Shown here one piece after another: positions 258 to 7,646 of a stretch of DNA of 64,000 bases (the first letter of the stretch is position 1; each line of letters opens with the position of its first letter). Below the pieces are notes generated by a model that searched no databases, was not told the origin of the DNA, and was given only the letters and a program-made list of their open reading frames with translations. The position numbers and the translations under genes were made by a program. This DNA is from a virus. The stretch covers positions 1 through 64,000 of the IMG/VR virus record IMGVR_UViG_3300025872_000051; one strand, 5' to 3'.

Positions 258-420
258 AGCGCACTATGGGTATGTAATCAATACATACTGGGACCATCTT
301 AATATGCTTTCAAAAATGAAGGATAAGAACCCTCAACGATTTGAAGCATTTGAGTATTCACAAACGCATATCTATGATATGATAGATATACTACAACATC
401 AGCAAAACTTACAGGATTAG
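247..420 (+). CDS. Small hypothetical protein (57 aa, MMNEAHYGYVIN...)
   Basis: Hand-translated ORF that overlaps the previous stop and fills the gap. Confidence 0.55.
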   Translation: MMNEAHYGYVINTYWDHLNMLSKMKDKNPQRFEAFEYSQTHIYDMIDILQHQQNLQD

Positions 421-511
421 TATAGTGGGGCAGCAAAGTCGGGTAGGGGTATTTGACTTGCGTAAGTCCCCATATTATAATATAAATAATGATACCCCTA
501 CTAAAAGAATA
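421..511 (+). promoter_or_regulatory. Leader of homing endonuclease 1: sigma70-like promoter, late promoter and inverted repeat
   Basis: TTGACT(453)-17 bp-TATAAT(476); TATAAATA at 481-488; GTAGGGGTAT (443-452) is the exact reverse complement of ATACCCCTAC (492-501). Confidence 0.7.
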
Positions 512-1111
512 ATGTATTATACTTACGCATATTTGCGTGAAGATGGAACTCCTTACTATATTGGAAAAGGTAAAGGTAAAAGAGTTTATAGCAATAACGG
601 AAAACCCTGTGTAGTTCCAAAAAATAAGAATCAAATAATATTTTTAAAACAAAATTTAACAGAAGAAGAGGCATATATTCACGAAATTTATATGATTAGT
701 ATACTTGGTAGAATTGATATAGGAACAGGTATTCTTCGTAATAAATCTAATGGCGGAGAAGGAAAAAGTGGTTATATACATACGCAAGAAACAAAAAATA
801 AAATAAGTCAAGCAGTAAAGGGTAAAAATCACCCTCTATATGGATGTTCTCCATCGTCAGAAACAAGAAGAAAAATGAGTGACTCTCTTAAAGGTAGAAT
901 AATAACTGACGAATGTAGAGCAAAAATGAGTGAGTCCCATAAAGGTAGACCACCAACTTATGGATTTAAAGGAAAAACTCATACAGAAGAAACACTACAA
1001 AATATGAGGAATAGAAAATGGTGGAATAATGGACAAATCAATAAAACTTCTGTAGAATGTCCTGGTGTCGGTTGGGTTCGTGGTATGCTTAAAGAGAGTA
1101 AAGGGAGGTGA
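512..1111 (+). CDS. Free-standing GIY-YIG-like homing endonuclease with NUMOD3-type repeats (HEG1)
   Basis: YTYAYLREDGTPYYIGKG...R, E..A..HE...I, GILRNKSNGGEG; repeats HTQETKNKIS, SSETRRKMS, HTEETLQNM. ATG 512 is preferred to the GTG at 425. Confidence 0.85.
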   Translation: MYYTYAYLREDGTPYYIGKGKGKRVYSNNGKPCVVPKNKNQIIFLKQNLTEEEAYIHEIYMISILGRIDIGTGILRNKSNGGEGKSGYIHTQETKNKISQAVKGKNHPLYGCSPSSETRRKMSDSLKGRIITDECRAKMSESHKGRPPTYGFKGKTHTEETLQNMRNRKWWNNGQINKTSVECPGVGWVRGMLKESKGR

Positions 1112-1117
1112 TTGAAA

Positions 1118-1513
1118 TTGGGAATGTTTGATTGGGTTCGCAGTAGTTATGACTTAGGCCCTCAATTTACGAATACAATTTTACAAACAAAAGACATAGA
1201 AGAAGGTTATAGTGGCACTATGACACACTTTTGGATTGACCCGAAAGGTGTTTTGTGGTGCCCTGATTATACCGGCACAAATACCTTTGAGATTATTGAA
1301 GAAGATGACCCACGATATAACCCTAAACATCTATTCTTGAACTATGAGTGGATACCTACAGGACAACGCGGAAGGTATCAAGTTCATCCAATCACAAAAT
1401 ATATTGAAGTATACCCAGAAAGATGGAAAGGTGAATGGGAAGATTGGCCCCGATTGAAACTACATTTTAAGAAAGGTGTTCTTCAAGATTATGAGGATGT
1501 GACTGGACGATGA
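1118..1513 (+). CDS. Conserved phage hypothetical protein (GMFD...QTKD family), TTG start
   Basis: GGAGGTGA (1104-1111) lies 6 nt before TTG GGA ATG TTT GAT. Confidence 0.7.
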   Translation: MGMFDWVRSSYDLGPQFTNTILQTKDIEEGYSGTMTHFWIDPKGVLWCPDYTGTNTFEIIEEDDPRYNPKHLFLNYEWIPTGQRGRYQVHPITKYIEVYPERWKGEWEDWPRLKLHFKKGVLQDYEDVTGR

Positions 1514-1830
1514 TTGATACCTCTTTGTTTCCTTATGAAAAGTTCCCTGTGCGATTGCAGTTTGGTGAAAAGAAAGAGATTTCAGTTTGTTGGTTTGAGT
1601 GTGATGAGCACTTGCAAAAATACCTGAATAGGTATAAACTGGACAAGAGAACTATTAAGATTGATTATCGTGATGGAGAACCCACTAAGCCTAGTAAAGC
1701 AAACAAGAACAGTGTGGAATCGGGAACTAGAAAGACCAGTAGTAGAAGTTCAAGTGGAAGTAAACGGAGCACCAAAAAGTTGGATTCCCCTGGAACTGTT
1801 AGTCGCACTCGCAAACCTAAATCAAAATGA
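1510..1830 (+). CDS. Hypothetical protein with basic Ser/Lys-rich tail
   Basis: ORF track; ATGA overlap with the previous gene. Confidence 0.6.
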   Translation: MIDTSLFPYEKFPVRLQFGEKKEISVCWFECDEHLQKYLNRYKLDKRTIKIDYRDGEPTKPSKANKNSVESGTRKTSSRSSSGSKRSTKKLDSPGTVSRTRKPKSK

Positions 1831-1968
1831 ACGAAGCAACGAAACTGTTGTTAGCACTACAACAGATTGATAATCTTACCAGTTTGTTAGAAGGTAACGA
1901 GTATCAAACATTTTTATATTCACATCTAAACTCATTAAACGTAGAACTCAAGAGGCAATTAAGTCATT

Positions 1969-2184
1969 ATGGAAAAACAACTGATTGATGATGCCTTCTA
2001 TGTTGAGGAAAAAAGTTGGGGAACTTGGCAATCTCATCATCCTGATGGAAAAGGTATCATCACCGCTCTTACAGAAGAGGAATGTATTAGAGCAACACGT
2101 TGGTATTTGAAAGCAAAACAAGAAGGTGAGTTTGACAAATCACCCGAAAAAACATATGATAGCACTATTGGAGGAAAACTATGA
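1969..2184 (+). CDS. Small cyanophage hypothetical protein
   Basis: ORF track. Confidence 0.6.
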   Translation: MEKQLIDDAFYVEEKSWGTWQSHHPDGKGIITALTEEECIRATRWYLKAKQEGEFDKSPEKTYDSTIGGKL

Positions 2185-2635
2185 CAACACGTACATTTGT
2201 AGACAAAAATGGTAATAGTTGGTTTTGGGAAGAAACTCCTGAGGTTCTAGAAGTTCTTAAGAACTTTCACGCAGGAAACTATGAAGGTCCATTGTATGCT
2301 CCTCATCCTGATTTGAATAATGAAACTCCGTCTAACACCTAAGCAACAATTGTGGGCAGATGTATTTTGTTGTGCTGTAGAAAGGTCAAATCTCTATTTT
2401 GCAGATAAAGACCTTGACCGACACGCAAGGGAGCATACTACAGTTGTTTTAGCACTACAGAAAGGCGATGAGTTCTGGAGAGAAATACTGTGAAATATCA
2501 CGTTTATGATGAAACAACTCCTTGGTATGATTTTCTTCAGTATTGTGAAATATGTTATCAGTTAAATGTACCAGGACAACCAAATCTCACTAGATTTATG
2601 AGATATAGGCAATATTTGAAAGAAGTTGGAGTTTT

Positions 2636-2863
2636 GTGATGTTTAAGTTTATCAAGTGGTTTATTTCACCCTCAAAACGACCTATTGTATGTGAAGATGT
2701 TGATGTTTATGAAAAATTGATTGAGTTGCAAAAAAGAATTGAAAAACTTGAAGAAGAAAATGTAGAGACAACAAACTGCATTTATGAGTTAGGAAACTCT
2801 GTTAATGCAGTAGATGCACGAATTGATATTATTCTAAATACTCCAAACATTACTGAATTTTAA
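2636..2863 (+). CDS. Small coiled-coil hypothetical protein
   Basis: ORF track; heptad pattern LIELQKRIEKLEEE. Confidence 0.6.
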   Translation: MMFKFIKWFISPSKRPIVCEDVDVYEKLIELQKRIEKLEEENVETTNCIYELGNSVNAVDARIDIILNTPNITEF

Positions 2864-2872
2864 TAAACTATT

Positions 2873-3163
2873 ATGACTTATTCTATTACTCTCCGTTCTG
2901 CTGATGGCACTGAAGAAGTAATCCAATGCGAAGAAGACCAATATATTCTTGATGCTGCTGAATATGCGGGTATTGACCTTCCTTCTAGTTGTCGTGCTGG
3001 TGCTTGCAGTGCTTGTGCTGGTAAAGTGATTGAGGGTGAGGTTGATAATGAGGATCAAACTTTCCTTGATGATGACCAAATGGAACAAGGATTTTCTCTG
3101 TTATGTGTAGCATATCCTAAGAGTGATTGTGTGATTCTCACTGAGCAAGAAGAGAACCTCTGA
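2873..3163 (+). CDS. petF: Plant-type [2Fe-2S] ferredoxin (auxiliary metabolic gene)
   Basis: [23 protein letters not shown]...DQTFLDDDQ...[11 protein letters not shown]. Confidence 0.95.
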
Positions 3164-3345
3164 TGTATGAAGATTTAAACAACTTTGAAAAAGCACTATC
3201 ACATTTTGGTACTAGAGTTGATATAATCTGTTCTTTGGAACTTGGAGGAAAGATTGATGCTGAGACAGCTTATCAGAACATTAAAGACGAACTTAAAGAC
3301 CTCAAAAAAGCACGAAAGCGACAGAGAAAAGACGAGGAGGTGTGA
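3163..3345 (+). CDS. Small conserved cyanophage protein
   Basis: ORF track; start overlaps the petF stop. Confidence 0.65.
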   Translation: MYEDLNNFEKALSHFGTRVDIICSLELGGKIDAETAYQNIKDELKDLKKARKRQRKDEEV

Positions 3346-3460
3346 TAAGTGTGGTGAAGAGAAACCTCTTGACGAAAACCACTATCAGGTGGTAAAGTAT
3401 TTTCGTCAGGGGTTCTCTTACTACTGCAACGACTGTAACAAACCAAAACCCAAAGATTGA
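3242..3460 (+). CDS. Possible small Zn-ribbon protein; start uncertain
   Basis: CDKC...YCNDC motif; overlaps the previous ORF. Confidence 0.4.
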   Translation: MEERLMLRQLIRTLKTNLKTSKKHESDREKTRRCDKCGEEKPLDENHYQVVKYFRQGFSYYCNDCNKPKPKD

Positions 3461-3981
3461 TTATGGACTTTGATTACAAAAAGTATTCGCTTGATAAGTT
3501 GAATGAATGGATGCACGATGCACTCTCCTGCAGTGAAGCAACACCGCAGGAGATTTATGATGTGATTAAAGATGTGGTGAGTGAGAACTATTACACTTAC
3601 AAGATTGAAACTGAAAAGTGTTATGAACTTCTTTGCCTACTGAATGGTAACGGTATCGGTCATATTCAAGCATATGATGATTATGTTACTGACCCCAAAG
3701 GTAATCAAGTGAAAGTTTGCAGTAAAGATGACCCATCACCTGAATGTCAAGGTGCTTGGAATGATTTTTGGGAAGAGAACTATTACCCAGAAGAATATAA
3801 AGAGGATAAAGTAGTTAAGTGGCAACTTCCTGTTGAAGTTGATGGATTAACTGGGGATTGTTTTGTTAACTTTCCTGATGATTTGTTGGAAGCAGCAAAT
3901 CTTAAAGAAGGAGATATGGTAGAGTGGGTAGATAATAATGATGGTAGTTTTACACTGAGGAAAGTTAATGGCACTAAGTAA
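3457..3981 (+). CDS. Protein with a C-terminal AbrB/SpoVT-like DNA-binding domain
   Basis: C-terminus FVNFPDDLLEAANLKEGDMVEWVDNNDGSFTLRK. Confidence 0.65.
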   Translation: MIMDFDYKKYSLDKLNEWMHDALSCSEATPQEIYDVIKDVVSENYYTYKIETEKCYELLCLLNGNGIGHIQAYDDYVTDPKGNQVKVCSKDDPSPECQGAWNDFWEENYYPEEYKEDKVVKWQLPVEVDGLTGDCFVNFPDDLLEAANLKEGDMVEWVDNNDGSFTLRKVNGTK

Positions 3982-4195
3982 ACAAACACTAGAACACCTA
4001 TTAGAGGCTGAAAGTCATCTGAGAGCAGCAATTAAATCTGCTGCCACAAATGAGAAACCACTTGTAGTTAAACAACTCTCACAACTTCTTCTTGATATTG
4101 AACAATGTAAGAAGTTTGAAGAGATTATGGATATGCTTGAAGACCGTAAACCTGGAAGCAAAGGTAACTTTGGTTCTTTCTTTGATAATAATTAA
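3968..4195 (+). CDS. Conserved cyanophage hypothetical protein
   Basis: ORF track. Confidence 0.65.
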   Translation: MALSKQTLEHLLEAESHLRAAIKSAATNEKPLVVKQLSQLLLDIEQCKKFEEIMDMLEDRKPGSKGNFGSFFDNN

Positions 4196-4448
4196 GTTTT
4201 GTAACGACACTCTAAAGACATCATTAAGGAATCGCACTTATCTCTTAAATAATGTTAGGATTTAAAGATATATGGGAGCAAAATGATGACTTATTCCAAG
4301 AAGAATACCAGTGAACTCACACAAACTGAATGGGATGAAATGGTTGCTCTTAAGAAAGCTATAAACTATGATATTACTCAAGTTCATCCAGAGAAGATGG
4401 AACAATTCACTGAGTATCTTGTTCGTAGTTTGAAGGAGAAGGGTGGTT

Positions 4449-4542
4449 GATAAATAATGATGCTTATTCGTGGTTGTTTAAGCAGAAAGGGGTCTTTGTG
4501 ACCCCTTTCTTATATAAATAGACATAACCACGGATAAAGCAG
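4449..4542 (+). promoter_or_regulatory. HEG2 leader unit: late promoter, stem-loop, terminator, second late promoter, complementary leader
   Basis: GATAAATA 4449; stem TGCTTA/TAAGCA; hairpin AGAAAGGGGTC/GACCCCTTTCT 4484-4510; TATAAATA 4513; TTATTCGTGGTT (4464-4475) pairs with AACCACGGATAA (4526-4537). Confidence 0.75.
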
Positions 4543-5235
4543 ATGGAATACTATACTTACGCTTATTTGCGTGAAGATGGCTCACCTTATTATATTGGTA
4601 AGGGGAAAGGTGATAGGGCATATAGAAAAAAAAGGAAGAATGGAAAACCTCCAATAGATAAATCTAGAATATTAATTTTAAAGCAAAATTTAACTGAAGA
4701 AGAAGCATTTAAGCACGAAATCTATATGATTGCAGTCTTTGGTAGAAAAGACTTGCGGACAGGTATTCTTCATAATAGAACTAATGGTGGTGATGGAACA
4801 AGCGGACATAAAATGAGTGAGATTGGTAGGCATAAATTAAGTAACCTAAAAAAAGGTGTAAAATTACCAGAAAGTCATATAAAAAATATTGCAAAATCAG
4901 TTAAAAAAAGATGGGAAGACCCAGAATATAAAGAAAAAATGTCACTTTTACAGAAAGGTAAAAAGAAAAGTGAGGAACATAAGAAAAAAATTGGAGAAGC
5001 AAATAGAGGAAAATCTGTTAATAAAGGGTTGTTTTCTAAAATATGGGAAATAACTTATGAAAATGGAAATGTTGAAATTGTTTATGATGGTCTTCCACTT
5101 TGGTGTGAAAAAAATGGTTATTTCTGGAGTAAAATAAGAGATTTATCAAGAGGAAGGGCAAAGAGGTCAAGTGGTCTTGTGTCAGTTAGGGAAGTGTCAC
5201 ATGGAAAGTGGCAAAGACGCTTGGATGCCCTATAA
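4543..5235 (+). CDS. Free-standing GIY-YIG-like homing endonuclease (HEG2)
   Basis: Same N-terminal domain as HEG1; NUMOD3-like KKSEEHKKKIG. Confidence 0.85.
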   Translation: MEYYTYAYLREDGSPYYIGKGKGDRAYRKKRKNGKPPIDKSRILILKQNLTEEEAFKHEIYMIAVFGRKDLRTGILHNRTNGGDGTSGHKMSEIGRHKLSNLKKGVKLPESHIKNIAKSVKKRWEDPEYKEKMSLLQKGKKKSEEHKKKIGEANRGKSVNKGLFSKIWEITYENGNVEIVYDGLPLWCEKNGYFWSKIRDLSRGRAKRSSGLVSVREVSHGKWQRRLDAL

Positions 5236-5236
5236 T
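5178..5236 (+). promoter_or_regulatory. Palindrome plus sigma70-like promoter inside the HEG2 3' end
   Basis: TGTGTCAGTT-N4-AAGTGTCACA, then GTGGCA(5208)-17 bp-TATAAT(5231). Confidence 0.65.
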
Positions 5237-5262
5237 ACAGTTGTTGATTTGAGGAACCTCCC

Positions 5263-5670
5263 ATAGCGACTCGTGGAAGAATTGGAATTGAATTGAAAGA
5301 TGGTTCGATATTGAGCATCTATTCACACTACGATAATTATCCCGAATACAACGGTAGGATTCTTCGCACTCACTACAATACCCGTGAAAAAGTTGCGGAA
5401 CTTGTAGATGGGGGGGATGTGAGTTGCCTTTGGACTGATGATCGCTGGGATAATAGTGGGGATGGTTCTTATGGACCTAACTATTACTCCTATCGTGGTG
5501 ATAATTGCCCTCCTCGCCTTGATGCAAACAAGTACGATTACCTTGCTGAAGGTGAAGAGTACGCTTATCTCTACACTCTGAAAGGTGAGTGGGTGTGCTA
5601 TAATCGTAATGAGTTTGGTAGTAAAATGCCTGAAATTTGTGAAATCCCCTCTGGAGCACTTGCTGTTTAA
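5263..5670 (+). CDS. Conserved cyanophage protein (ATRGRIGIEL... family), probable ATA start
   Basis: In-frame ATA GCG ACT CGT GGA AGA ATT GGA follows GAGGA; the track start at 5293 cuts off the TRGRIG N-terminus. Confidence 0.65.
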   Translation: MATRGRIGIELKDGSILSIYSHYDNYPEYNGRILRTHYNTREKVAELVDGGDVSCLWTDDRWDNSGDGSYGPNYYSYRGDNCPPRLDANKYDYLAEGEEYAYLYTLKGEWVCYNRNEFGSKMPEICEIPSGALAV

Positions 5671-5672
5671 TT

Positions 5673-5894
5673 ATGAAACCTAAGTATCTTGCTGCTGGAC
5701 TGATTGCTTTCTCTGCTGTGATTGGATGGAATGTATTCCTAGTGCAGCGTGATGATGCAATGTATAAAGAATACTATCGTCGTCAAGCAATAGAGAACCT
5801 CAAACGACCACCAAGCAAAGATATTGCATATTCTCCCAAAGAACAATTTTGTCAGTCTCAAGCGCACTGGCATCCTGATTGTGATGTAGAATGA
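5673..5894 (+). CDS. Small membrane-anchored protein
   Basis: N-terminal hydrophobic helix YLAAGLIAFSAVIGWNVFLV. Confidence 0.6.
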   Translation: MKPKYLAAGLIAFSAVIGWNVFLVQRDDAMYKEYYRRQAIENLKRPPSKDIAYSPKEQFCQSQAHWHPDCDVE

Positions 5895-6148
5895 GTTTAT
5901 CACTTGCAATCGCAATCTACTGTGCTATGATTGCTGTGGTCTCATCACTTCTCACTTATTATTTCAAGGTGATGAGACCTAGAGAAGAAGAACAACTTAA
6001 AGGAGGAAAAACTCTTGATTGATTATAACAAAGACCGCAAAGACCTTCAGATTGATAGGACTGCTGATGATTTCTGTATGTGGGCAGAAGAACAAGCAGC
6101 AAAGTTTGAAATCACGGTTGATTATTTCTTTGAGGAGTTTCTTCTGGA

Positions 6149-6177
6149 TTGACAATCAAACCAAAAAACATTAAACT
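6149..6177 (+). promoter_or_regulatory. Sigma70-like promoter
   Basis: TTGACA-17 bp-TAAACT upstream of ORF 6201. Confidence 0.65.
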
Positions 6178-6200
6178 AAAGGAGTAACTTACACAAACAA

Positions 6201-6434
6201 ATGAAGTATCTGTATATTGTTGATTTCTGGGTTCCTTTTCCTTCTTCGGAATATGGTGGACTAATCAATGTTATTGCTAAAGATGACATTGAATGTCACG
6301 ATATTCTGAGGGATAGTGAAATCTCTTATGATTCTTCCTATGACAATAAGATTATGGAGCGTGTAGTTGCTGCTCCACGTTTTGCTCTTGCTGAAGAAGA
6401 AGAGTCCCGCGTTGTTGAATCCTTTACGACCTGA
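6201..6434 (+). CDS. Conserved cyanophage small protein (YIVDFWVPFPSSEYGG)
   Basis: ORF track; promoter upstream. Confidence 0.7.
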   Translation: MKYLYIVDFWVPFPSSEYGGLINVIAKDDIECHDILRDSEISYDSSYDNKIMERVVAAPRFALAEEEESRVVESFTT

Positions 6435-6593
6435 TGAGTAATCCTGAAATGAATCGTCTTGCGTTTGATTTGAAACAACAATACCAAGACCGCATAGAAG
6501 ATTTGCAACAAAAGATTACAGAACAGCAGAAAGAAATCCTAAAACTCCAAGAACAGATTAAACTGCTATCATACGACAAATACTACGATTGTT

Positions 6594-6698
6594 GATAAAT
6601 ACTAATGCCTGAGTTGGGTGCAATCTTCACAGGTAGAGAGGGAGCAGAAATGCTCCTTTTCTTTTATAAATACTATTGCACCCAACTAAAGAGCAGTT
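6594..6698 (+). promoter_or_regulatory. HEG3 leader unit, same architecture as HEG2
   Basis: GATAAATA 6594; stem TGCCTG/CAGGTA; terminator GGAGCA-GAAA-TGCTCC-TTTT; TATAAATA 6665; AGTTGGGTGCAAT (6612-6624) is the exact reverse complement of ATTGCACCCAACT (6675-6687). Confidence 0.8.
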
Positions 6699-7313
6699 AT
6701 GGAAAATCCTAAGAGATTTTACACTTACGCATATTTGCGTGAAGATGGAACACCTTATTATGTTGGAAAAGGAAGTAAGTATAGAGCATATTATAAAAAA
6801 AGAAATGAAGTAAAACCGCCGAAAGACAAATCTAAAATTATATTTTTAAAGAAAAATTTAAGCGAAGAAGAAGCATTTAAACACGAAATTTATATGATTA
6901 ATGTGTTTGGTAGAAAAGATTTGGGAACGGGTATTTTGCGTAATAAAACTGATGGTGGCGATGGAATATTCAATTTGATAAGAACAAAAGAACATATGGA
7001 TGCTCTACGCAGAGGTAGATTAAGTTATTCTTTTACTGATAAAGTTAAAAATAAAATCAGTAATACCTTAAAGGAAAAAAATATTAAACCACCATCAAGA
7101 AAAGGTATAAAACACAAAGAAGAATATTTCAATAAAAGATGTAAAAAAACATATAAAATTATAAATCCAGATGGAAAAATCTTTATCACAAATAGATTAA
7201 AGAATTTCTGTAAGATCAATAATTTGACTTGTAGTTGTATGTGTGATGTTGCTAATGGAAAATACAAACAATATAAGGGGTGGACAGTTAAAATACTGGA
7301 ACAGAAACCTTGA
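6699..7313 (+). CDS. Free-standing GIY-YIG-like homing endonuclease (HEG3)
   Basis: YTYAYLREDGTPYYVGKG; C-terminal LKNFCKINNL...GKYKQYKGW DNA-binding module. Confidence 0.85.
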   Translation: MENPKRFYTYAYLREDGTPYYVGKGSKYRAYYKKRNEVKPPKDKSKIIFLKKNLSEEEAFKHEIYMINVFGRKDLGTGILRNKTDGGDGIFNLIRTKEHMDALRRGRLSYSFTDKVKNKISNTLKEKNIKPPSRKGIKHKEEYFNKRCKKTYKIINPDGKIFITNRLKNFCKINNLTCSCMCDVANGKYKQYKGWTVKILEQKP

Positions 7314-7338
7314 CTTTTGCTTGATTTTTTCTTATAGT
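7280..7338 (+). promoter_or_regulatory. Degenerate palindrome plus sigma70-like promoter at the HEG3 3' end
   Basis: GTGGACAGTT-N4-TACTGGAACA, then TTGACT(7310)-17 bp-TATAGT(7333); same spacing as the 5178 element. Confidence 0.65.
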
Positions 7339-7361
7339 GTCTTTGTTGAGTAAAACTTAGT

Positions 7362-7646
7362 TTGGAACTTCCACCTCTACCTTATTCTGCCCCCGATGGA
7401 TATTATTATGAATGTGAAGAATTCAAGAGGAATGTTGTTCGTATTTGGTTATGCAACACTCATAAGTTTGACTACAATAATGGTGCTCCAACGAAAACAA
7501 TTCATTCATTTTATAACACCAAAACCAGAGAATACTTTGCCCCAATCAATAGTAAGACCATCGGTGTTCGTGTAAATATTAAAGATACACGAAATTATAC
7601 AACGATGCCGATTAAACAATCTCCATTAGATAAGTTTTTCGTATGA
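7362..7646 (+). CDS. Conserved cyanophage protein (FKRNVVRIWL...APINSK), TTG start
   Basis: ORF track. Confidence 0.7.
   Translation: MELPPLPYSAPDGYYYECEEFKRNVVRIWLCNTHKFDYNNGAPTKTIHSFYNTKTREYFAPINSKTIGVRVNIKDTRNYTTMPIKQSPLDKFFV

Follow-up and report, generated by a model that had tools for sequence, protein, structure and literature searches.

A candidate portable RNA control cassette in front of GIY-YIG-like homing endonuclease genes of T4-like cyanophages

Translational control by an RNA helix has been described for I-TevI, I-TevII, I-TevIII, segB and Aeh1 mobE, and also for e and soc (PMC2988022, PMC3014915). In this T4-type control the helix masks the ribosome-binding site on transcripts derived from upstream, the late promoter TATAAATA lies inside the structure, and the late RNA, which lacks the 5′ arm, is translatable. 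A similar element was reported by Dassa et al. (2009; PMC2677866) at 'fractured gene' loci of ocean metagenomes. In a cyanophage-like context, hairpins were described there for 15 of 16 endonuclease 5′ untranslated regions, and ten of these also had TATAAATA. The stem brings together two conserved motifs, and the element was read as a cis translational hairpin only. In phages P1 and P7, the c4 antisense RNA is transcribed from the same strand as its target and upstream of it (Citron and Schuster 1990, as summarised in PMC12197685). Here, we describe an arrangement that shares features with these systems in a 64,000-nucleotide stretch of viral DNA (the window), which is the first 64 kb of the 76 kb IMG/VR virus record IMGVR_UViG_3300025872_000051. 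Three paralogous genes for GIY-YIG-like endonucleases, HEG1, HEG2 and HEG3, are found there, all on the plus strand, and each is preceded by a segment complementary to its own leader. We propose that each endonuclease gene carries a portable, RNA-level 5′ control cassette, and give this explanation as a whole a probability of about 0.5.

HEG2 and HEG3 present the same order of elements, here termed class A: a late-type promoter motif (P1), a 5′ hairpin whose loop contains the anti-leader, an intrinsic terminator, TATAAATA (P2), a complementary leader with a Shine-Dalgarno (SD) sequence, and the ATG. All of these elements lie on the plus strand. In HEG2, the late-type motif P1 (GATAAATA, 4449-4456) overlaps the TGA of the open reading frame (ORF) at 4283-4450. 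It is followed by the 5′ hairpin (4462-4483; stem 4462-4466/4479-4483, with the anti-leader in and around the loop at 4464-4477), the terminator hairpin (4484-4510) and its U run, the canonical P2 (4513-4520), which sits inside the loop of the long-range helix, and the leader or 3′ arm (4524-4541). This arm pairs with 4461-4477 over 17 bp with one bulge and two wobbles. The initial annotation had given a match of 12/12 with one G-U; the pairing is indeed present, although those twelve are only a subset of 14 contiguous pairs (4464-4477 with 4524-4537, two wobbles) and three more beyond the one-base bulge. The HEG2 helix includes AAAG and reaches position -2 from the ATG.

In HEG3, P1 (GATAAATA, 6594-6601) overlaps the TGA of ORF 6434-6595. 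The stem of the 5′ hairpin (6607-6611/6630-6634) holds the anti-leader (6612-6624) in its loop, and the terminator (6635-6662) with its U run, the canonical P2 TATAAATA (6665-6672) and the leader (6675-6695) follow. The 3′ arm (6675-6687) matches the anti-leader at 13 of 13 positions, as had been noted, and the pairing extends further than claimed: TGCCT (6606-6610) pairs with AG-A-GCA in the SD region (6690-6695), so that 6606-6624 is engaged in 18 bp in total. This helix includes AGAG and reaches position -4 from the ATG. In both genes, the base of the long helix is formed by TGCYT pairing with AG(A)GCA just before the ATG, and the helix encloses the terminator and TATAAATA. The leader folds were far more stable than those of shuffled sequences, with z values of -6.4 (HEG2) and -5.6 (HEG3), and none of 200 shuffles was equally stable.

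The locus shares with the T4 type that the helix takes in the SD and start region (HEG2 and HEG3), that a late promoter motif lies between the arms (all three genes), and that the controlled genes are selfish endonucleases. The cis part, a masked ribosome-binding site with a late promoter in the loop, is the known I-TevI/segB/mobE mechanism of T4. The locus departs from T4 in four respects. The loop contains an intrinsic terminator, the 5′ arm itself folds into a local hairpin, and the unit is apparently mobile and common to many nuclease families; furthermore, the 5′ arm in T4 comes only from distant early or middle promoters, whereas class A has a dedicated late-type promoter in fixed register just before it. 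The elements of Dassa et al., compared here by their text description, are probably the same element or a sister of the present module, and the text of that paper describes no upstream promoter, internal terminator, local hairpin or covariation. The arrangement of P1, hairpin, terminator and P2, together with its covariation and its spread over nuclease families, is possibly new: no description was found in the literature examined, and it is absent from Rfam.

Relatives of the module were collected by a degenerate-pattern search, in which 80 related loci were taken out of at least 560, and the class A layout was compared in 59 non-redundant loci. Copies of the class A module were found at more than 60 related viral loci, which represent about 45 genomic contexts. 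It starts, in order, with N[A/C]TAAATA, five semi-conserved bases, G/A-C-C/T-T, a variable arm and a short U-rich spacer. The remainder consists of a partner segment closing the local stem, a GC-rich hairpin with a U run and, after these, T-ATAAATA, the complementary arm, purines that resemble AAGAGCAG, and the ATG. Complementarity to the 5′ arm extends over the entire leader, from approximately the start of P2 to 2-5 nt before the ATG, SD-like purines included, and the leader and SD region fell within the helix in 60 loci.

The arm:leader duplex energies, whose comparison is independent of any alignment, averaged -22.1 kcal/mol for cognate and -9.1 kcal/mol for non-cognate pairs, and the cognate leader was the best partner in 45 of 62 cases. 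A covariance model comprising the long-range helix and the terminator found 60 copies, and the alignment statistics were calculated on these. Paired cells amounted to 90.1%, compared with 69.1% in shuffled and 36-49% in slid alignments, and double changes were observed in 16 of the 18 long-range pairs. The covariation score was 0.584 against 0.208 and was reached in 0 of 500 shuffles, a count to be taken as a strong indication and not as a probability. Misalignment of the variable arms limited RNAalifold on a plain MAFFT alignment to the six conserved base pairs; covariance-model alignments were used instead.

The initial annotation had described the three variable segments as unrelated within a conserved architecture, and both parts were borne out. 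The arms of HEG1, HEG2 and HEG3 formed cross-duplexes of only -6 to -10 kcal/mol, compared with -19 and -23 kcal/mol for cognate pairs, and P1 stood in every class A locus at a fixed distance of five bases from the stem. Modules within one genome were likewise orthogonal, with cognate duplexes of -18 to -24 kcal/mol and cross-duplexes that reached -14.4 kcal/mol at most, and several contigs held two or more modules each, with unrelated arms. An Rfam search of positions 300-7500 returned no family, only two chance-level matches with E up to 1. YUNR loop motifs were also looked for by eye and were dropped as too degenerate to inform.

The mismatches within the arms reveal the level at which the pairing is maintained. 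Among 1038 arm pairs, 39 were G-U, and none of the eight 1x1 mismatches was A-C, which is the expected appearance of a wobble on the opposite strand. The minimum free energy was -35.8 kcal/mol for the plus strand and -29.7 kcal/mol for the minus strand, with the plus strand more stable in 57 of 59 loci. Since G-U is tolerated, A-C is absent and the plus strand folds better, selection acts on RNA of the nuclease-gene sense, and an anti-leader helix under selection at the RNA level appears almost certain from these patterns. The covariation between loop and leader that had been put forward as a check was thus positive and RNA-like in more than 60 homologous loci.

The same observations bear on a DNA-level explanation, in which the inverted repeats around P2 would be operators, for example for the DNA-binding domain of the nuclease itself, or would form a cruciform controlling P2. 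The late promoter of I-TevI is repressed by the enzyme itself at an operator resembling its homing site (PMC2988022), and here the repeats also bracket a late promoter. However, the mismatches obey the rules of plus-strand RNA, and the arms change by compensation and do not follow protein domains. The same module also serves unrelated nuclease families with different DNA-binding domains, and no second copy of the arms was found in the flanking DNA or elsewhere in the 64 kb window. For an I-TevI-type operator, which would resemble the homing site, the absence of a similar arm copy in the flanks is a partial test. A DNA operator or homing-site mimic was rejected on the wobble asymmetry, the lack of another arm copy and the spread over nuclease families, and we consider DNA-level control of P2 very improbable.

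In the RNA-level mechanism that we propose on the model of T4 (PMC2988022), the intrinsic terminator would halt transcription arriving from upstream. Any read-through transcript would hold both arms and fold into a helix of 17-20 bp, in which the leader and SD sequence are paired, and would be translationally silent. The mRNA initiated at P2, inside the loop, would lack the 5′ arm and be the sole translatable form, and the nuclease would be made only late in infection. This combination of a cis lock and escape through P2 is very probably correct.

P1 is the element that separates class A from the described T4 cases. Its word, N[A/C]TAAATA, was present in all 59 class A loci, and P1 and P2 have the common consensus ATAAATA-N-TA-W-TGC, with a T before the ATAAATA of P2 in 55 of 59 relatives. 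Within the window, TATAAATA occurred three times, always on the plus strand and each time as the P2 of one HEG. The shorter word ATAAATA was found 15 times on the plus strand and once on the minus strand, where 29 and 20 were expected; these counts fit a functional promoter word. With any preceding base, [AC]TAAATA was located 20-40 nt upstream of many phage ORFs, for example at 2834, 8023, 9053, 24107, 42420, 51925, 59679 and 62592. P1 is a probable active promoter by its motif and context.

T4 late promoters start about five bases from the motif, and this spacing was carried over to cyanophages and assumed for the predicted P1 transcripts. On this assumption, transcription would begin at the first paired base in 54 of 60 loci. 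The RNA so predicted consists of the 5′ hairpin and the terminator hairpin in all 60 loci, with a length of 47-62 nt and 0-4 nt between the hairpins. For HEG2 it would cover about 50 nt (4462-4511) and for HEG3 about 58 nt (6607-6664), both on the plus strand with predicted ends; both adopt the two-hairpin fold and match the covariance models R1 and R2. The local stem was 100% paired, and compensatory changes were seen in three of the four modelled pairs; variants noted by eye include GCCTG/CAGGT, GCTTA/TAAGC, CCTTAA/TTAAGG, CTCTAA/TTAGAG and ATCTGT/ACAGAT. The 5′ half of this stem is also the partner of the SD region, which gives two mutually exclusive helices, both of them conserved.

A discrete RNA of 47-62 nt is a reasonable prediction because the two-promoter layout is conserved and P1 stands in a fixed register, and on these sequence features we lean towards its existence. 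P1 and the local stem, which a purely cis lock does not need, would fit an antisense RNA with its recognition sequence displayed in a loop. In class A, P1, positioned 5 nt before the 5′ stem, would launch this RNA with the anti-leader in the loop of the 5′ hairpin, followed by the terminator hairpin. It would then anneal in trans to the 5′ end and SD sequence of the P2 mRNA and damp nuclease translation or set a threshold for it, as c4 acts on ant in P1/P7. Repression in trans may occur, though we put it forward with some doubt. The broader proposal is tentative: P1 might drive a family of two-hairpin antisense RNAs of about 55 nt, leader-matched and mutually orthogonal, which together with the terminator and P2 form a portable self-limiting cassette, repeatedly acquired by unrelated nucleases in cyanomyoviruses.

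The likeness to c4 lies in a short structured RNA whose loops are complementary to the ribosome-binding region of the downstream gene, with matched changes of loop and target between relatives. The c4 RNA is processed out of an operon transcript, whereas a separate promoter and terminator are predicted here. It controls antirepression and immunity in temperate phages, in contrast to a nuclease in a lytic phage, and its activity is proven, whereas the present RNA is predicted from sequence. The initial annotation had called the RNA antitoxin-like. In type I toxin-antitoxin pairs (tisB/istR-1, zor/orz), the toxin is a small membrane peptide and the RNA is, as a rule, divergently encoded. A short RNA next to a harmful gene, with some 15-20 nt of complementarity to its 5′ untranslated region, is common to both, and to this extent the term holds as an analogy. 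Here, however, the RNA lies in tandem and the product is a nuclease of 200-230 amino acids (aa) and not a type I toxin peptide; no small hydrophobic peptide was found among the HEG products, which are nucleases of 199-230 aa.

Another RNA tied to a homing endonuclease gene in a T4-like cyanophage is the CfrI antisense RNA of S-PM2, of about 225 nt, which runs on the opposite strand across F-CphI and psbA (Millard et al. 2010, cited in PMC2984593). In contrast to CfrI, our element shares the strand of the gene and precedes it, and it is absent from S-PM2.

HEG1 represents a second design, class B. Its upstream hairpin (425-473, plus strand; outer stem 425-430/468-473) contains the anti-leader (443-452) and is followed by an A/U-rich run, which gives it a terminator-like appearance. 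Downstream of this 5′ arm, on the plus strand at 453-488, lie a sigma70-like promoter (TTGACT-17-TATAAT, 453-481, 11/12) and then TATAAATA (481-488). The leader segment (492-501, plus strand) is complementary to 443-452 at 10 of 10 positions, with a duplex of -21.4 kcal/mol, and no TAAATA is present upstream of the hairpin; HEG1 thus lacks P1, as first annotated, and the layout elements listed at that time for all three genes were found in place. The pairing stops 10 nt short of the ATG, and the HEG1 leader fold alone was not significant (z -0.87).

The class B pattern, GGGCAGCAA-[variable]-TTGCGTAAGTCCC and an A/U run followed by TATAAT and/or TATAAATA, was found at 47 distinct viral loci, with the anti-leader within the terminator-like hairpin. 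The mean loop:leader duplex was -24.9 kcal/mol for cognate and -16.2 kcal/mol for non-cognate pairs. TAAAT[AC] occurred upstream in only 17 of the 47 loci, mostly as GTAAATA, a form that showed no sign of use as a promoter word in the 64 kb window. Class B would be the lock without P1, its anti-leader held within the terminator-like hairpin and its sigma70-like and late promoters placed downstream. The hairpin followed by TTGACT-17-TATAAT gives HEG1 the look of the PeSL composite terminator/early-promoter cassettes of T4-like phages (PMC2839356, PMC4122927), whereas HEG2 and HEG3 have late-type motifs instead. PeSLs are likewise short, portable stem-loop and promoter units at gene joints in plastic regions of T4-like genomes. 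Their promoters are early ones, and their sequences are not complementary to the leader that follows, unlike class A with its two late-type promoters and anti-leader.

Several observations weigh against the proposed cassette with its trans-acting RNA, and part of them favour a simpler explanation. According to this alternative, the module is only a T4-type fail-safe made of a terminator, a helix masking the ribosome-binding site and an internal late promoter; the short RNA is an inert by-product, and P1 might be kept as a late promoter with silent read-through, as a supplier of a stop codon, or as a recombination joint. The same arrangement is documented for I-TevI, I-TevII, I-TevIII, segB and Aeh1 mobE (PMC2988022) and for metagenomic endonuclease genes (PMC2677866). 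Class B, including HEG1, retains the complementarity between loop and leader without a canonical P1; evidently, no dedicated small RNA is required for the lock. In 31 of 51 loci the stop codon of the preceding gene falls inside P1, and in most of the remaining loci it is no more than about 10 nt away; part of the P1 conservation could be shared with coding constraints. In some class A loci the terminator stem runs directly into TTATAAATA with almost no U tract, and termination there may be leaky.

Other points count against our explanation on their own. The model-fitted alignments lean towards structure, and many of the sequences are related. The SD-like elements are weak (AAGAG, AAAG), and SD masking as the control point is an assumption. 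The 24 sequencing runs listed for positions 400-7400 were all DNA metagenomes, with no RNA run among them. The model cyanophages Syn9, S-PM2, P-SSM2, P-HM2 and S-RSM4 gave no match to model R1 in a search that did recover the copies in S-SRM01 and S-B68, and the element thus falls outside the published cyanophage transcriptomes. Finally, P1 activity, the transcript ends, termination efficiency and the trans effect are all things that we infer from sequence, and this applies to both the 'stand-alone small RNA' and the 'trans repressor' of the initial annotation.

A lock acting only in cis, however, needs no promoter word in a 5-nt register with the stem, which was seen in 59 of 59 loci, and needs no covarying local stem that places the anti-leader in a loop. 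A stop-codon role explains neither the invariance of all six TAAATA bases nor the downstream consensus common to P1 and P2. Moreover, if P1 and P2 fire together, the short RNA and its perfect target coexist. We consider the cis-only explanation a serious possibility, of somewhat less than even chance.

The position of the upstream stop codon also invites an explanation by translational coupling. Ribosomes ending at that stop would unwind the helix at its base (TGCCT:AGAGCA) and thereby expose the nuclease SD sequence on polycistronic read-through RNA, and translation of the nuclease would be tied to that of the upstream gene. Coupling through long-range helices that upstream ribosomes open is well established, as in MS2 and the ribosomal protein operons, and the upstream stop falls within about 10 nt of P1 in most loci, that is, 5-15 nt from the first stem base. 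However, the intrinsic terminator that separates the arms should leave little read-through RNA, the stop position ranges from -56 to +15 relative to P1 whereas the register of P1 and stem is fixed, and TAAATA is left unexplained. Coupling is therefore improbable.

The distribution of the module identifies the genes that it serves. The flanks of module and gene fell into 45 upstream and 47 downstream similarity clusters. S-SRM01 carries six copies, before genes of five N-terminal types, and S-B68 (on Synechococcus WH7803) carries one, between the DNA polymerase gene (g43) and uvsX. A pattern scan requiring only P1, GCCT, AGGT and TATAAATA gave more than 76 further distinct copies, and where an ORF followed, it was a nuclease-type or mobile-element-type gene in 71 of 72 cases. 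Pfam searches with ten representative genes behind the module identified GIY-YIG, NUMOD3, Endonuclease_7, DUF7487 and TnpB (OrfB_IS605), and one representative had an HNH-like motif with no Pfam match; genes beyond these ten were sorted by N-terminal motifs. The same module thus precedes unrelated nucleases (GIY-YIG, HNH, EndoVII, TnpB) and is therefore a regulatory cassette and not a nuclease cofactor.

This argues against a further idea, raised in the initial annotation, that the short RNA is a specificity or guide RNA that is bound by the nuclease and directs or modulates cleavage. The variable segment is indeed gene-specific, and TnpB, one class behind the module, is RNA-guided in other settings. 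However, DNA recognition by enzymes of the GIY-YIG, HNH and EndoVII types relies on protein domains, all of these families are preceded by one RNA architecture, and within the flanks and the 64 kb window the variable segment matches only the leader of its own gene. The idea did not survive these comparisons, and a guide function is extremely improbable.

Individual loci presented further features of the module. In two IMG/VR contigs (L135:3847-5151 and L147), it stands before a 398 aa TnpB-like gene (HTH_OrfB_IS605, OrfB_IS605, Cas12f1-like TNB), which places an RNA-guided nuclease type in a cyanophage under the same control module as homing endonucleases. Second modules in two contigs (L083:374-472 and L045:3130-3249) precede a different endonuclease family, with the N-terminus ...PRIY-x-YKITFEEVPYYYYG. 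On the minus strand of a further contig (L151:3179-3272), an intact P1 and local hairpin are followed by a degenerate terminator and 3′ arm (duplex -3.6 kcal/mol), and the next ORF is not nuclease-like; this is a probable module remnant and may mark a lost endonuclease gene. In S-SRM01, the gene annotated as 'nuclease associated modular domain 3 protein' (L084:326-1027; MW015081.1 51291-51992) has its deposited start inside the module, upstream of P2. Its coding sequence is probably too long at the 5′ end, since a conserved ATG occurs 56 nt further downstream.

The edges of the cassette were also considered. Metagenome contigs from three freshwater runs join 6596 to 7642, skipping HEG3, its module and the next ORF (7362-7646), and another contig loses similarity just before 4448. 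The left breaks at 6596 and 4448 coincide with the first bases of P1, which is a hint on the left cassette edge (85% likeness). The remaining contig joints were rejected as cross-mapping between the HEG paralogues. Sigma70-like promoters were located at or just past the 3′ ends of HEG1 (1030-1058), HEG2 (GTGGCA-17-TATAAT, 5208-5236, plus strand) and HEG3 (TTGACT-17-TATAGT, 7310-7338, plus strand). Sigma70-like scores of 10/12 or more occurred near the HEG stop in 24 of 56 loci, compared with 5% of control windows. This excess points to an additional role of the cassette in restarting transcription downstream; in the proposed mechanism, the promoter at the 3′ end of the gene would often do so for the phage genes that follow.

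The products of the three genes were compared with known families. HEG1 (512-1111, plus strand, 199 aa) encodes a free-standing GIY-YIG-like endonuclease with NUMOD3 repeats (E 1e-26). HEG2 (4543-5235, plus strand, 230 aa) has weak NUMOD3 similarity (E 0.0015, below the cut-off), and HEG3 (6699-7313, plus strand, 204 aa) has none by Pfam search. All three matched PHROG 314, 'homing endonuclease', with E 1e-10 to 1e-17. Their shared N-terminal domain has an invariant YTY...YYIGKG, an Arg, a His-Glu and an Asn, and the catalytic-motif columns were invariant in 34 sequences: Y4/Y6 (YTY), Y16-Y17-x-G19 (YYIG), R25, H58-E59 and N78. In Pfam, GIY-YIG itself was not reached, and only LEM-3_GIY-YIG appeared, at E 0.009, below its cut-off. 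A PDB profile search gave a weak match to a GIY-YIG protein (E 0.006). With an AF2 model of HEG2, the top ten Foldseek matches were all GIY-YIG domains, yet with E 0.26 or weaker. From these similarities, 'GIY-YIG-like free-standing endonuclease' is a fair name for the HEG products.

The nearest named relative of the window is the freshwater Synechococcus myovirus S-SRM01, which was also the only match in a near-identity nucleotide search (80% identity over 250 bp). The window further contains a plant-type ferredoxin-like ORF (2873-3163), with a Cys-rich 2Fe-2S motif seen by eye in the translation and CTAAATA upstream at 2834; this is an auxiliary metabolic gene typical of cyanophages.

Selfish nucleases need enough expression to spread, and not so much as to harm the phage that carries them. 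In T4-like cyanophages of freshwater and marine origin, one compact, apparently mobile RNA control module is found at hundreds of loci and is common to unrelated nuclease families. Even if it acts only in cis, the module can be used directly to flag mobile nuclease genes, mis-annotated ones included, and probably marks the left edge of the mobile cassette. It also supports [AC]TAAATA as the working late-promoter word of the phage, because this word is strongly avoided on the antisense strand. The question can be tested directly in the cultured carriers S-B68 and S-SRM01, the latter with six copies. If the short RNA is real, it would be the first class of small-RNA regulators tied to homing endonucleases in lytic T4-like phages, and would provide dozens of naturally orthogonal antisense/leader pairs, that is, natural orthogonal riboregulators. 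If the P1 antisense family as a whole is real, it would be the lytic-phage counterpart of the c4 system of P1/P7.

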